Virus record (IMG/VR): IMGVR_UViG_3300042261_000588
Coordinates: 32,001 to 96,000 of that record
Direction: 5' to 3' (one strand)
From: a virus
Length of the DNA: 64,000 bases
In this document: positions 52,441 to 64,000 of the stretch, piece after piece
Numbering within the stretch: position 1 is the stretch's first letter
How the letters are laid out: every line of letters starts with the position of its first letter
Translations under genes and position numbers: made by a program
The notes under the pieces: model-generated
What the model was told of the DNA's origin: nothing
The model's database searches: none
The model's input: the letters and a program-made list of their open reading frames with translations, nothing else

Positions 52441-52827
52441 ATGAGATCAGAGAGAATAGCAAATAGCTTAGTTAAGCGGATTACTGGTAATTACTCTGTT
52501 TTTGGGTGGAATCATGTAGTTGATGGGATGGTAGATCGATTGGAAGACCTATCTTCTGAAATAAGTATTTCCAAGTTTGATAATCTGGATGCTGTAGCTG
52601 GATGGTCCAAGCTGGTCGAGAGGGAACAGATCGACTTATACGACGAGGTATTATCTCGTGAGGTTGACGAACTTAGGGGTGAGTTGGCAAATATCTTAAA
52701 TGAGGCAGAGTCAATCAATCGTTGGTGGAGCGACGAATTGAGAAAAATGAAGCAGAAATGTCAGAAGGTATCGAAAGACATGCTTAGTTTAGCCGCTAAG
52801 TTCAAGAAAATGGAGAAAAGATCATGA
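52441..52827 (+). CDS. Helical protein with RIA-type leader
   Basis: MRSERIANSLVKRITG. Confidence 0.6.
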   Translation: MRSERIANSLVKRITGNYSVFGWNHVVDGMVDRLEDLSSEISISKFDNLDAVAGWSKLVEREQIDLYDEVLSREVDELRGELANILNEAESINRWWSDELRKMKQKCQKVSKDMLSLAAKFKKMEKRS

Positions 52828-53318
52828 ATAGAGAAGAGCGGATTATTGGTCGTGTAGCTAGTAAGTCTCTAGAGAGTTGGCAGATGATGGACATCAGTAA
52901 GGTATTGCGTAGAGAGCAAAATTTAAGGGGGAAGATAGCTGATGCGATTAGAGACATCAAGACATGGATGGCAGACATACGACATGATAACACGATGAAG
53001 ATGGCGGCAGAGGAAGCGATGAGTGCGCTCGTAGGTGCATTGAAGGCGACGGACATACTAATTGGCATTAGTTTGGGTGAGATGCATGGGGAGATGACTT
53101 ATCTAGCCGGAGAGAAGACGGCTGCGAACAATTGGATGAATATAATTCACATGAGGAGGGATTTAGATGATATGGTGGCACAAGCTAAGATGTGGGTAAG
53201 AAGCGAAAAGGATGCAACATCTGATGGTGGTTTTTCAAATGTTAAACATTATGAGTCTGTAGTGAGTGCTCTCGCCGAGTGCTCTGACAAACTTCGTAAA
53301 GTCGAACATATCACCTAA
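52824..53318 (+). CDS. Two-module protein with RIA-type leader
   Basis: MNREERIIGRVAS; internal EKTAA. Confidence 0.6.
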   Translation: MNREERIIGRVASKSLESWQMMDISKVLRREQNLRGKIADAIRDIKTWMADIRHDNTMKMAAEEAMSALVGALKATDILIGISLGEMHGEMTYLAGEKTAANNWMNIIHMRRDLDDMVAQAKMWVRSEKDATSDGGFSNVKHYESVVSALAECSDKLRKVEHIT

Positions 53319-61579: not shown

Positions 61580-64000
61580 CCAAGATTTTGTGGCACATCT
61601 CGAATAGTCTGTTCAAGAGGTTTGACCCGAGGATGACGGCTCAGGGGATCATTTGGTTTGCAGAAGACGGGAATCATCTAGTCAAGGACTTGCATGGGGC
61701 ATCTGTCAACAATAGATTGCCAGTATACTTATACAAGTGCGAAGTAAGGATGGGTAAAGTTGCGGGCTGGGATGAGTATGATAAGAAGGGGCTCGGACAA
61801 TTAAGAGATGATGGATTTGACACAATCGAGCTTGATGGCGACGTGGCAGTTTTAAACAAGAACTTCATTAGAATTCTGGGAGTGCAGCAGATTGGAAAGA
61901 AGGAGCATGTAATGACAGCATCAGAAAACAAGTGTAAGGTAATTAGGCCACCGGAAGTGTTTGACTTCAAGCAGCCTCCTGAGCCGCCAGTAGTCTTTTT
62001 GGGTGGTGCTATTGATATGGGGCAGGCAGAAGATTGGCAGTCAAAACTTGCCGAGACTCTCGATGATGTTTCATGTGTGTTGCTCAATCCCAGACGCAAT
62101 GATTGGGATTCTTCATGGGAGCAGAGCATTCATAATCCCCAGTTCAAGGAGCAAGTTGAGTGGGAATTGAAGGGTTTGGAGCAGGCGACTTTTGTTGTGA
62201 TTGTCTTGCCGAAGGATTCCAAGGCTCCGATTTCGCTTTTGGAACTTGGGTTGCATGTGATTGGCAGGCGGATGATTGTCTTCTGTCAGGAAGGGTACTG
62301 GCGCAAGGGGAATGTGGATGTGGTTTGCAATCGGTATGGGGTGCCTGTTTACGAGGATTTCGACTCTTTTGCGACTTTTGTGAAGGCGAGGATTTTGGAA
62401 ACGACGGCGGGAGCGCATGAGCCGGAAGTATTGCCCGAAGGGACGGTACAGCAGCAGAAACAGCATTTCGTCGTGGCGTCGGATCGGATGGCATGGCGAA
62501 TCATGGCAAGAGAGTTCGTAATTGGAACGAAGGAGGTGCGTGTGGCTTCAAATATGAGTGCGTCTAAAAATAAAAAGGTGGTTTGTCCTGACTGCGGTCA
62601 GATGGTTGGTGTTAGGTTGGTTCCAGGAGGAGGATCGTGGAATCATTTCATTACACATATGGATCGCAAGGGAGATCACTGCAAGGGATCGGGATGGTCA
62701 GTTCCTAAATATCCAGATAAGGAAGAGTGGGGAAAGCAGGAGCGTGTATCAAGTAGATCGAGATATTGTTCCGTGCCGAGATATTGTGATTTTTACAAGG
62801 CGGTGAATGGCAAGTGGTATATGAACTTGGCGAATGATGAGGATGGGGGGTATCGCGACTCAGAAACATACGGTCCATTTGAATCACTTGATAGTGCTAA
62901 GAAGTACTTGCATAATTTCTCGAATCCGGGCTCCTATCGGACGGATGATAGTGGAAAGAAGTCTGTTCCAACTCATAGTCCAAATGGACGGCCTGTGCAA
63001 AAACCGGAAAGTCGTACGTGGAGCAGCAAAATGATGGCAACAATGACAGTTAAAGAAGGCGATATTTGCAATGTTAGTGGTCATACGGAGGCAGAAGCTG
63101 ATCCGATGGCCGGAGAGAATCTGACGAGTCTTTTCTTGACATTACAGTCTTGGGCTACTAGGAAGGCCAATAGCCTGCATTTCGGGGCACCAGTGGCCTT
63201 GCAGATACTGGACAGGCTGGATGATGTGGAGACAGCATTGAAGGGCAAGATGGGTCTCCGTGGGCGGGAAGCGGTCATTGCGCTATTGAAAGCTATGAAA
63301 GGCTGCTTTACTATGGATGCTCAGCCGATTCCGGCTCTGATTCACAGATACGGCGTGGATGCGATTCGGGAGTGTGCAGGTCGTCGTTCTGCATCGGTTG
63401 AGTCCGGCATGGGAGATACTCACCCATTTGGTTCTCCTTTGCGTGGCAGACCGGATTACGGCGAAAGAGATGGGGAAGTTGGAGAAAAATACGGATTGAA
63501 ATTACCAAGTGAGGGTATAATGACATCGGAGGATAAGAATATGAGTGTTACAGCAGAGACTTTACGAGTCCGTGTAATTGCAGACAGGATCGCCTCTATG
63601 GCGAAAGAGTTTTTAGGATCGGAGAGATGGGATGGCGAGATACAGGGACAACATATACGGTTTCAATGGGTAGATCGTAGTGAGCGTCAATATCGGCTAA
63701 CAGAGATGCCCATGCCAGGAAAGAAGCGTCTGAGGGTAAGGTCTGGTGGATTCCCAGCATGGTTGGGAGGATCACAGAAGAGGGAATATGGATTCTTGCT
63801 GATGGCAAATGTTGCACCTCGCATCAAGGCGTCGATGACATACGAGCAAGCAGCGTCCGAGATTGATAAGAGAATGAAGGAGTTGGTGGCCGAGTCGAAT
63901 GACAAGTCTTCAGAACCAAAACAAGAGCAGGATTTGATTTCGGGGCCATGGGAGACGTTGGTGTTCTATCTTGAAGTTGAGCCTGCGGATATGAAGCCAT
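61576..64000 (+). CDS. Polyvalent protein, truncated by window end (>808 aa, absent from ORF track): ART-like, nucleoside 2-deoxyribosyltransferase-like, zinc ribbon and further modules
   Basis: Hand translation is open to the end; LWH.S...F..F...GIIWF; VFLGG.I....WQ...NPRR..WD...QVEWE...PISLLELG; CPDCG. Confidence 0.85.
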   Translation, partial: MTKILWHISNSLFKRFDPRMTAQGIIWFAEDGNHLVKDLHGASVNNRLPVYLYKCEVRMGKVAGWDEYDKKGLGQLRDDGFDTIELDGDVAVLNKNFIRILGVQQIGKKEHVMTASENKCKVIRPPEVFDFKQPPEPPVVFLGGAIDMGQAEDWQSKLAETLDDVSCVLLNPRRNDWDSSWEQSIHNPQFKEQVEWELKGLEQATFVVIVLPKDSKAPISLLELGLHVIGRRMIVFCQEGYWRKGNVDVVCNRYGVPVYEDFDSFATFVKARILETTAGAHEPEVLPEGTVQQQKQHFVVASDRMAWRIMAREFVIGTKEVRVASNMSASKNKKVVCPDCGQMVGVRLVPGGGSWNHFITHMDRKGDHCKGSGWSVPKYPDKEEWGKQERVSSRSRYCSVPRYCDFYKAVNGKWYMNLANDEDGGYRDSETYGPFESLDSAKKYLHNFSNPGSYRTDDSGKKSVPTHSPNGRPVQKPESRTWSSKMMATMTVKEGDICNVSGHTEAEADPMAGENLTSLFLTLQSWATRKANSLHFGAPVALQILDRLDDVETALKGKMGLRGREAVIALLKAMKGCFTMDAQPIPALIHRYGVDAIRECAGRRSASVESGMGDTHPFGSPLRGRPDYGERDGEVGEKYGLKLPSEGIMTSEDKNMSVTAETLRVRVIADRIASMAKEFLGSERWDGEIQGQHIRFQWVDRSERQYRLTEMPMPGKKRLRVRSGGFPAWLGGSQKREYGFLLMANVAPRIKASMTYEQAASEIDKRMKELVAESNDKSSEPKQEQDLISGPWETLVFYLEVEPADMKP

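Follow-up and report, generated by a model that had tools for sequence, protein, structure and literature searches.

The window analysed here is a 64,000-nucleotide stretch of viral DNA, bases 32001-96000 of one 143,854-bp IMG/VR virus record, and our subject is a short leader peptide that recurs in a block of its genes at window 52441-64257, the last of which runs past the window's end. The record comes from a large uncultured freshwater phage; it is linear and 67% complete (CheckV), and no circularity was seen in the contig. Family scans place neck and tail genes, including one for a 2071-amino-acid (aa) tape measure protein, at genome 4-31 kb, and a replication module (DnaE-type polymerase, DnaB, primase, SSB and UvsX) at window 1-50 kb; the leader block follows, and after it come an RNA-ligase-like gene, methyltransferases, a glycosyltransferase and ribonucleotide reductase. 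No cultured relative was found, the best DNA-polymerase match in a phage collection being ~30% identical, and single-protein IMG/VR scans with the topoisomerase or the 603-aa protein of the block gave no close relative. A tRNA search of the window found none. The block holds these features, with scores, where given, from a hidden Markov model (HMM) of five leaders (ORF, open reading frame):

52441..52827, + strand: 128-aa protein, N-terminus MRSERIANSLVKRITG; coiled-coil-like, no family; leader HMM 11.1 bits
52824..53318, + strand: 164-aa protein, N-terminus MNREERIIGRVAS; no family
53339..53725, + strand: second 128-aa protein, N-terminus MKDVDKIIERVAKG
53801..54427, + strand: 208-aa protein, N-terminus MNREVKIANRVMMAA; leader HMM 14.8 bits
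54424..55128, + strand: 234-aa ORF, with a Lys-rich N-terminal part and then an in-frame Met at 54850 that opens MNGRIDKIASRVAG and ~85 residues
55424..57235, + strand: 603-aa protein, start moved from 55391; MGLERTNRIRRMVSSLMVTAS at the start, N-terminus MGLERTNRIRRMVSSLMVTASEILGSSAW; no family
57334..57846, + strand: ~170-aa protein, start moved from 57271; MRMSIASDIVSVAKDLIAG at the start, N-terminus MRMSIASDIVSVAKDLIAGE
58230..58311, + strand: relic of a leader gene, ATG AAT AGG GAA (MNRE), a one-base shift, SRIAERIVARYPDTANRAGA in the +1 frame, then a stop
58552..59643, + strand: 363-aa type IB topoisomerase; ahead of the catalytic domain, the leader-like helices NNRVSRIADIVAE and SRISAIVDRIIA and an LEF..Y..EH motif
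59565..59804, + strand: small acidic ORF ending ...DDEEMKETPIDVLMILGFDPKELF, downstream of the topoisomerase gene
59804..61579, + strand: polyvalent protein of 592 aa with four modules, ending in ARIVDRLIQKVLERKL
61576..64000 and on to 64257 past the window, + strand: polyvalent protein of 893 aa with an NDT-like domain and further modules

A GGAG-type ribosome site lies 6-10 nt upstream of the starts at 52441, 52824, 53339, 53801, 58552, 55424, 57334 and 54850, and with starts corrected by inspection of these sites the leader falls at residues 4-20 of eight proteins. In all, the peptide starts, ends or joins ~15 unrelated proteins of the phage. The Met at 54850 is preceded by a ribosome-site-like aagggg..gaagg, and the 234-aa ORF is either a two-module fusion or a gene with an internal start.

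The preliminary description of this stretch had proposed that a single short peptide is common to otherwise unrelated proteins, and had named enrichment over background as a check. The proposal is borne out. In a proteome defined as a greedy set of 204 ORFs from the whole record, all four matches of the strict core [RK]I[AI].R[VI][AM] fall in the block, which accounts for 8% of the residues (mean 0.0 over 300 residue shuffles), and a looser core matches 11 times, with eight matches in the block (2.1 and 0.2 expected). The five leaders used to build the HMM score 11-15 bits, while the next-best match in the proteome reaches 3.8. Finally, once the first 25 residues are removed, all-against-all BLAST of the protein bodies finds no pair better than E = 0.03, which rules out paralogy as the source of the shared leader. 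Where leader residues agree, their codons differ in 23 of 38 pairs; selection therefore acts on the leader as protein, and a DNA- or RNA-level element is ruled out as its origin. The leaders are basic and, as helices, strongly amphipathic, with hydrophobic moments of 0.45-0.82, and 10 of the 12 exceed the 95th percentile of proteome 11-mers. The leader of the 603-aa protein aligns with an internal leader of the 893-aa protein (E 0.011).

Copies of the leader had been presented as a feature of this block. All strict cores do lie in it, but leader-like N-termini also occur at six sites outside, at genome 575, 4115, ~7975, 14968, 96322 and 99102, three of which can be described further:

Genome 575: protein with N-terminus MSERIEQMKVAS
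Genome ~7975: protein with N-terminus MNSREDMIADRVAL, followed by two more helices, SSEILKVAKSLLA and EIQDILRLAKSVLSG
Genome 99102: protein with a leader-like N-terminus and a WGR domain

The ~7975 and 14968 proteins sit in the neck module and have leader-bearing orthologues in a relative, genome G001. As had been noticed from the sequence, replication genes are free of the leader: an HMM scan of the proteome found none with it at the N-terminus. Two listed examples have to be reassigned, SRIAERIVAR lying in the frameshifted relic, with a stop 23 codons on, and ARIVDRLIQKV being the C-terminal end of the 592-aa protein. The 700-nt stretch around the relic (57847-58551) seems to be decayed coding sequence.

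Protease tails, portal fusions and a parallel block

The leader resembles the C-terminal tail of a head protease found in relatives of the phage. G001 (locus L092), with 55% DNA-polymerase identity and a syntenic neck/tail module, encodes, within its head module, both a head maturation protease (phrog_18299, 2e-12) and its major head protein (phrog_2522, 2e-53); this protease ends ...KRQKEEMINRVARSLYVAR / ...FRMRVADRNGMIVLRVAQDELRKRQKEEMINRVARSLYVAR. Among the 120 homologues listed, of 1959 found, the tail consensus is R-[RK]-R-E-x-[MI]-[AIV]-x-R-[VIL]-A-[RKSG]-x(2-4)-end, and tails and leaders correspond position by position (REEMISRVASSLL with NREERIIGRVASKSL, EDMASRVAKTF with DKIIERVAKGV). 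The five-leader HMM places its best match at most 12 residues from the C-terminus in 80 of the 120 listed proteases, against 4 of the 60 shuffled proteases that gave any match. The search also works in the other direction: a matrix made from protease tails alone puts leader N-termini in the top three places among the 204 ORFs (the 164-aa protein at 15.2 bits, the genome-7954 protein at 14.1 and the second 128-aa protein at 12.3), and finds the internal leaders of the 893-aa (10.8 bits) and 234-aa (10.0 bits) proteins as well as a C-terminal copy in the genome-97109 protein. Tag and tail appear to vary together in the few genomes compared. Where the protease has the tail (G005, G009, G001 and G007), matrix matches are denser at the first 20 residues of proteins than internally, by a factor of 2-9, with N-termini such as MNSERIAAMASRVAETE, MKMNRFEKIAGRVAAD and MNSERLAHMVDRVAGLED; G004, whose protease homologue lacks it, has two matches in the first 20 residues, neither of them a clear tag and one of them the tail sheath.

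In phage SPN3US, the C-terminal region is thought to target the prohead protease into the prohead (PMC7411985). The simplest reading of the match in our data is that cargo proteins would borrow the docking peptide of the protease. Work by Duda and colleagues from 2013 reportedly showed that the tail of the HK97 protease (gp4) targets likewise, and that it is able to bring foreign proteins into capsids. In G001, two very acidic proteins (10473-12184), one with MDYMDYMDMDMDMDDD runs, are encoded between protease and major head protein; these are likely scaffolding proteins and candidate receptors of the tag.

Relatives of the topoisomerase also point to the head. The enzyme matches PF01028 (67 bits, 2e-18; cut-off 23.7) and PF21338 (29.1 bits; cut-off 27) and has 639 database relatives, among which orthologues of 81-88% identity keep the leader, while distant ones have different N-terminal peptides or fusions to MuF, portal, ART or NUDIX domains. 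Of 75 IMG/VR type IB topoisomerase loci, 39 encode an N-terminal extension of at least 450 aa, and the 36 distinct long forms include 26 with portal domains (PF06381 in 18, PF04860 in 3, PF05136 in 3, PF06074 in 2) and three with MuF; P0013 and P0027 are further portal/MuF-fused cases. A portal or MuF fusion is an accepted sign of a packaged effector in work on polyvalent proteins, which are predicted to be packaged and injected and often carry autoprocessing peptidases (Iyer et al. 2017, PMC5512222). Type IB topoisomerase is absent from the domains of that study, where the word occurs only in the reference list, and we found no description of a portal-topoisomerase IB fusion in the literature searched. 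Such fusions suggest that a DNA-relaxing enzyme arriving together with the genome has an early function not yet described. The window itself holds no portal or MuF fusion and no virion gene neighbourhood; these occur in the topoisomerase homologues and in the G004 block described below.

In the fused forms (loci L006-L085, for example L022:605-3271, L008:3594-6287 and L006:2283-6094), the topoisomerase is the C-terminal domain, joined to portal or MuF by a conserved D..F.ES.HPR......G.F..GGG linker. Locus L019 has the order terminase, portal, MuF, a 96-aa ORF with a leader, starting MKTIADAISRIQRTLAR, and a topoisomerase that also has a leader, starting MLTMKAIADALKRMSQTLAR. Leader and cargo are separated by another portable motif, [FW]-x(6-9)-Y-[LM]-x-x-H-P-x-S-K, at ~residue 170 of the 603-aa protein (FEFPSQDAMSKYLKDHPKAKKENHW), at topoisomerase residues 37-60, in P0004-P0006 and in L027; it aligns with the ..EHPR...GKF linker of portal-fused topoisomerases.

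G004 (the record of locus L027) is a complete genome of 281,566 bp in which 13 ORFs start MK-x-x-[IV]-[SA]-L-S. Eleven of these, one being a type IB topoisomerase, form a block at 191-203 kb flanked by the portal gene (204736-206607, phrog_16240, 1e-217) and the head protease homologue (189586-190332). Judged by gene content and order, this is a parallel system with the same cargo and position and a different tag. Across 189586-206607 the order is portal, a 210-aa ORF, a 348-aa KMPT-N protein, the eleven MK-I-x-I-S-L-S genes, a 349-aa ORF and the protease homologue; other genes are interspersed, such as that of an NAD-dependent DNA ligase with a looser ...KIMISLSS start, and related strand-like motifs (KIKIDL, KVKLDI) are found at two C-termini.

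The head is proposed as the destination because of the protease-tail match, the portal- and MuF-fused cargo and the position of the G004 block. The capsid targeting put forward in the preliminary description thus has comparative support, whereas binding, packaging and ejection are steps that we infer.

Module junctions and candidate cut sites

The two long proteins at the end of the block each hold at least two disparate domains, the 893-aa protein combining an NDT-like domain with no fewer than four further modules. For the 592-aa protein, exhaustive HMMER searching gave 1460 matches, in which alignment breaks are confined to four places. Breaks in homologues at residues 112-116, 253-285 and 472-489 delimit modules A (1-113), B (114-259), C (260/279-472) and D (489-590), and the linkers PRVAG (112-116), SKVAG (274-278) and SKAAS (~476) fall at these borders. 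The modules of the two proteins are:

592-aa protein, 59804-60142: module A, a Cys19-His54-Asp66 domain of transglutaminase/papain-like fold
592-aa protein, 60143-60580: module B, starting RVAG-VKEVVDKITKRI
592-aa protein, 60581-61231: module C, a zeta/AAA_33 kinase with SKVAGP just before it
592-aa protein, 61268-61573: module D, Cys-rich
893-aa protein, residues 1-113: module 1, then VMTAS|E
893-aa protein, residues 119-280: NDT-like domain (PF15891, 4e-30; phrog_30579)
893-aa protein, residues 301-317: conserved helix ASDRMAWRIMAREFVIG, then VRVAS
893-aa protein, residues ~330-500: Cys4 module, then DPMAG|E
893-aa protein, residues 514-607: module 5, then RRSAS
893-aa protein, residues 622-893: module 6, with the internal leader LRVRVIADRIASMAKEFLG at 63568

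In the 893-aa protein, stand-alone NDT-like proteins start right after the position of VMTAS|E, module 5 opens after a conserved D-P-M-A-[GA]|E-K-L, and the stand-alone homologue P0274 corresponds to residues 622-892. Since homologues begin or end there, the module borders of both long proteins are genuine shuffling joints, and the short linkers that had been noticed between recognisable domains coincide with them in both. The enzyme labels proposed earlier fared unevenly: family scans confirm the type IB topoisomerase, the zeta/AAA_33-type kinase and the NDT-like domain, while the RelE-like and ART-like labels are unconfirmed, module B of the 592-aa protein giving no credible fold match and the first module of the 893-aa protein no family match.

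Leader-like helices reappear at the joints. DRMAWRIMAR is a junction helix, many NDT homologues carrying A-S-D-R-[IM]-A-[RW]-R-[IM]-[MI]-A-R-E-F-[VI]-G after the NDT domain, and this helix is constant while the module that follows it differs between proteins. In 387 fetched homologues the strict core matches 18 times against 1.0 expected (six N-terminal, four C-terminal and eight internal), and near-identical peptides (KIAERVAG, RIANRVAG, RIASRVAG, RIADRVA) stand at N-termini, C-termini and junctions. The linker form [RK]VA[GS] is found 12 times in the proteome and six times in the block, compared to 4.6 and 0.5 in shuffles, a twelve-fold enrichment in the block.

It had been suggested that the proteins are processed at x-A-[SG], and as written this is not supported. 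Some 50 homologues of module B keep [RK]-x-A-[GSD]-phi-x-[DE]-V-phi-x-[KR]-I either internally or, in dozens of proteins that stand alone, 2-8 residues after the Met, as in the starts MN|REAG, MRRS|READ and MKSRRN|REAS. In the AlphaFold model of module B (mean predicted local distance difference test score, pLDDT, 86), the nine residues ahead of RVAG are disordered and RVAG opens a helix packed in a hairpin (pLDDT 85-97); [AG][GS] is also typical of helix ends. A different pattern, A-x-E, is enriched three- to sixfold in leader N-termini: the first 40 residues hold 0.64 occurrences on average, other N-termini 0.10 and composition-matched shuffles 0.19 +/- 0.11. It also trails several linkers (MVTASE, LIAGE, VMTASE, DPMAGE, IIALE, RVALE). 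Head proteases of giant phages cleave at A-x-E (PMC5694885), and the enrichment possibly points to a cut site other than x-A-[SG]; the cleavage half of the earlier interpretation was probably mis-sited. No consistent L/I-x-E site was found in the leaders. The head protease might cut the tag after the Glu of A-x-E, the Cys-His-Asp domain encoded in the block might instead cut it at [RK]-x-A-[GS], or the tag might stay uncut.

The second of these possibilities is part of an alternative that we consider unlikely, in which module A is a Cys-His-Asp peptidase that cuts at [RK]-x-A-[GS] after leaders and between modules, targeting being a separate matter. It would then be comparable to LapG, which cuts LapA at Ala-Ala, to the double-glycine leader peptidases or to the poxvirus A-G|X core protease. 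Module A is a widespread 105-residue phage domain, without a Pfam or PHROG match, in which Cys19, His54 and Asp66 are invariant in 19 sequences. Its model (pLDDT 96) has Cys19 at a helix N-terminus, and the folds that match it best all belong to the transglutaminase/papain-like type (LapG, Z 7.5; arylamine N-acetyltransferase, 7.4; TglA, 7.2; protein glutaminase, 6.5). A peptidase would fit the enrichment of [RK]VA[GS] at module borders, the RVAG directly behind module A, the stand-alone kinases P0220 and P0237, which start with a leader followed by K-I-A-G-P, and the frequency of autoprocessing peptidases in polyvalent proteins (PMC5512222). However, Z scores below 8 speak for fold and not for function, and the same fold makes acyltransferases, deamidases and glutaminases; cutting would be of little use in stand-alone proteins, which have the motif 2-8 residues behind their Met; and in module B the RVAG opens a folded helix. 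We regard the fold as credible and the activity as not, and module A may be an effector rather than a processing enzyme. Members of its family (P0181-P0271) occur alone or heading polyvalent proteins, sometimes with a leader of their own (MNEARELLRIAKGLVAVS).

Another reading, quite improbable in our view, takes the helix for a connector: it would provide homology for module shuffling, or pack or oligomerise domains, and its likeness to protease tails would be a coincidence between Arg/Ala-rich helices. The presence of strict cores at N-termini, C-termini and junctions alike is what a connector would give, as are the constant post-NDT helix ahead of variable modules, the free recombination of modules and the helix that forms part of the module-B fold. 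Yet the differing codons at agreeing residues argue against DNA-level homology within this genome, and small single-domain proteins have the helix at their very N-terminus. Coincidence also sits badly with a tail-only matrix that ranks leaders as the top three of 204 ORFs, and both the portal fusions and the location of the G004 block between portal and protease genes speak for the head.

A candidate address for the capsid interior

Our preferred reading, held with moderate confidence, is that the shared peptide is a tag that addresses proteins to the capsid interior. The tag would be an amphipathic helix of ~10-20 residues with the core E-x-[IM]-[AI]-x-R-[VI]-A-[SKG], and would bind the protease-tail site in the assembling procapsid, on the scaffold or on the inner face of the capsid protein. 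The head would take up the tagged proteins, and these would reach the next host together with the DNA. Candidate cargo comprises the type IB topoisomerase, the zeta-type kinase, the NDT-like enzyme, the WGR-domain protein, the Cys-His-Asp enzyme and several orphans. The two long proteins would be strings of once-separate tagged modules, with the tag left at junctions and sometimes at C-termini.

Several points weigh against an address tag. Capsid, portal, terminase, scaffold and head protease genes were not recognisable by family scans on this 67%-complete contig, the phage's own head module probably lying in the missing third of the genome, some 70 kb long, and the protease-tail match therefore rests on relatives. 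The protease is named by its PHROG match only, since Pfam, NCBIfam and PDB sequence searches gave nothing, and the covariation of tag and tail draws on a sample of ~seven genomes. The motif models are short and their bit scores low, so that ranks and positional enrichment carry the weight, not E-values. The block sits between replication and methylase genes, away from head genes. Finally, the module-B helix looks integral to its fold in the model, and some of the 'tags' may be ordinary first helices.

That the helix instead serves membrane binding, a degradation signal timing early proteins, or sorting to a replication compartment is very improbable: it is amphipathic and basic, its cargo consists mostly of DNA and nucleotide enzymes, and the block, preceded by an upstream region of its own in which a private repeat occurs, lies away from head genes, but no transmembrane or secretion features were seen, no phage-nucleus components turned up (no search was aimed at them), and the protease-tail match, the portal/MuF fusions and the position of the G004 block would be left unexplained.

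An address to the capsid interior has well-studied counterparts. In T4, IPI, IPII, IPIII and Alt carry a capsid targeting sequence, which the gp21 prohead protease removes (Mullaney and Black 1996, cited by PMC5694885 and PMC7411985). Like it, the peptide described here is short, N-terminal and carried by unrelated proteins, with prohead loading and ejection proposed and with host-modifying enzymes among the cargo. Unlike it, our peptide is unrelated in sequence to MKTYQEFIAE, also occurs at C-termini and between polyvalent modules, equals the protease's own tail (as seen in relatives) and shows no consistent L/I-x-E. The T4-type protease PF03420, as well as PF04586 and core proteins, is absent from the 67%-complete contig, and the relatives have a different protease, recognised by PHROG only. 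Also comparable are the tails of SPN3US gp245 and HK97 gp4, short terminal peptides of proteases thought to dock inside the shell and portable, as here. Encapsulin cargo-loading peptides are analogous portable shell-docking peptides. What differs from the protease-tail systems is that a dozen or more unrelated natural proteins, as candidate cargo, carry the tail motif here, and in the literature searched we found neither such a natural cargo repertoire nor the link between tag and tail.

The combination of disparate enzymes recalls the polyvalent proteins (PMC5512222), with which the system shares a zeta-type kinase, an NDT-like domain, a peptidase fold, WGR and, in relatives, RelA/SpoT. There, however, effectors are covalently fused to virion domains, whereas here the tag is a short free-standing peptide or a junction helix, and Pfam matches to LPD or MuF domains were not found in the block. 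Giant-phage head propeptides, cut at A-x-E or S/A/G-x-E (SPN3US gp245, phiKZ gp175; PMC5694885, PMC10052503), share with our case the jumbo setting, the many internal or ejection proteins and the A-x-E enriched in leaders; they differ in being mostly longer than 100 residues rather than one shared short peptide, and the protease family is probably different. Double-glycine/C39 leaders and the LapG-LapA pair are similar in having an amphipathic leader that ends in small residues (several of our leaders end in AG or AS) and a Cys-His-Asp domain of papain/transglutaminase fold nearby. No ABC transporter or export context accompanies the leaders, and C39 peptidase domains match module A with a Z of only ~4. 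The double-glycine register (hydrophobic residues at -4, -7, -12 and -15) was discarded, only one leader fitting it well by eye. The system would, in sum, be a variant of the principle of the T4 targeting sequence and of the protease tail, joined to the polyvalent-protein theme.

With the match between tag and tail, the loose analogy to T4 becomes a specific hypothesis of one docking site with many clients. Should the tag prove to be an address, sequence alone would suffice to predict what uncultured giant phages inject, the build-up of polyvalent proteins would be explained as tagged modules fused end to end, and a small natural peptide would be at hand for packaging foreign proteins in capsids. 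A more general proposal, which we put forward tentatively and with some doubt, is that jumbo-phage lineages each use an address code copied from the tail of their own protease, any tagged protein or module being loaded into the head. On that proposal type IB topoisomerase, which is present in poxvirus virions, would be a common capsid-delivered enzyme, tagged here and portal-fused elsewhere.

Upstream region and minor features

An acidic ORF ending ...D.DD.E...TP.DV..MLGFDP trails the topoisomerase IB gene in three distantly related phages (here, L027:11443-11640 and L019:7979-8269), and the product of the small acidic ORF may be a partner protein. The genome-8726 protein, considered as a capsid candidate, resembles a head-tail adaptor more, on an Atlas lead only. 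Upstream of the block lies:

52189..52440: intergenic region, shared with a divergent 322-aa gene at 51220-52188 (- strand)

This region contains three copies of TTACACTCA at 52210-52353, of four in the whole 144-kb record, and the triplet may be an operator for block-specific control. The best sigma-70-like match in the region, TTTACT-16-TATAAT at 52411-52438, is weak, and promoter-like sites of this kind are no more numerous than in shuffles. The block lacks the promoter-like TTATTCTG-N9-TTTCGGTAATGT element that precedes other gene sets. Near-identical copies of TTATTCTG-N9-TTTC-GGTAATGT occur at window 36963, 37595, 38512, 39834 and 41474 and at five more sites of the record, ending 1-16 nt ahead of the starts of small genes at the five window sites and at most 135 nt ahead elsewhere.

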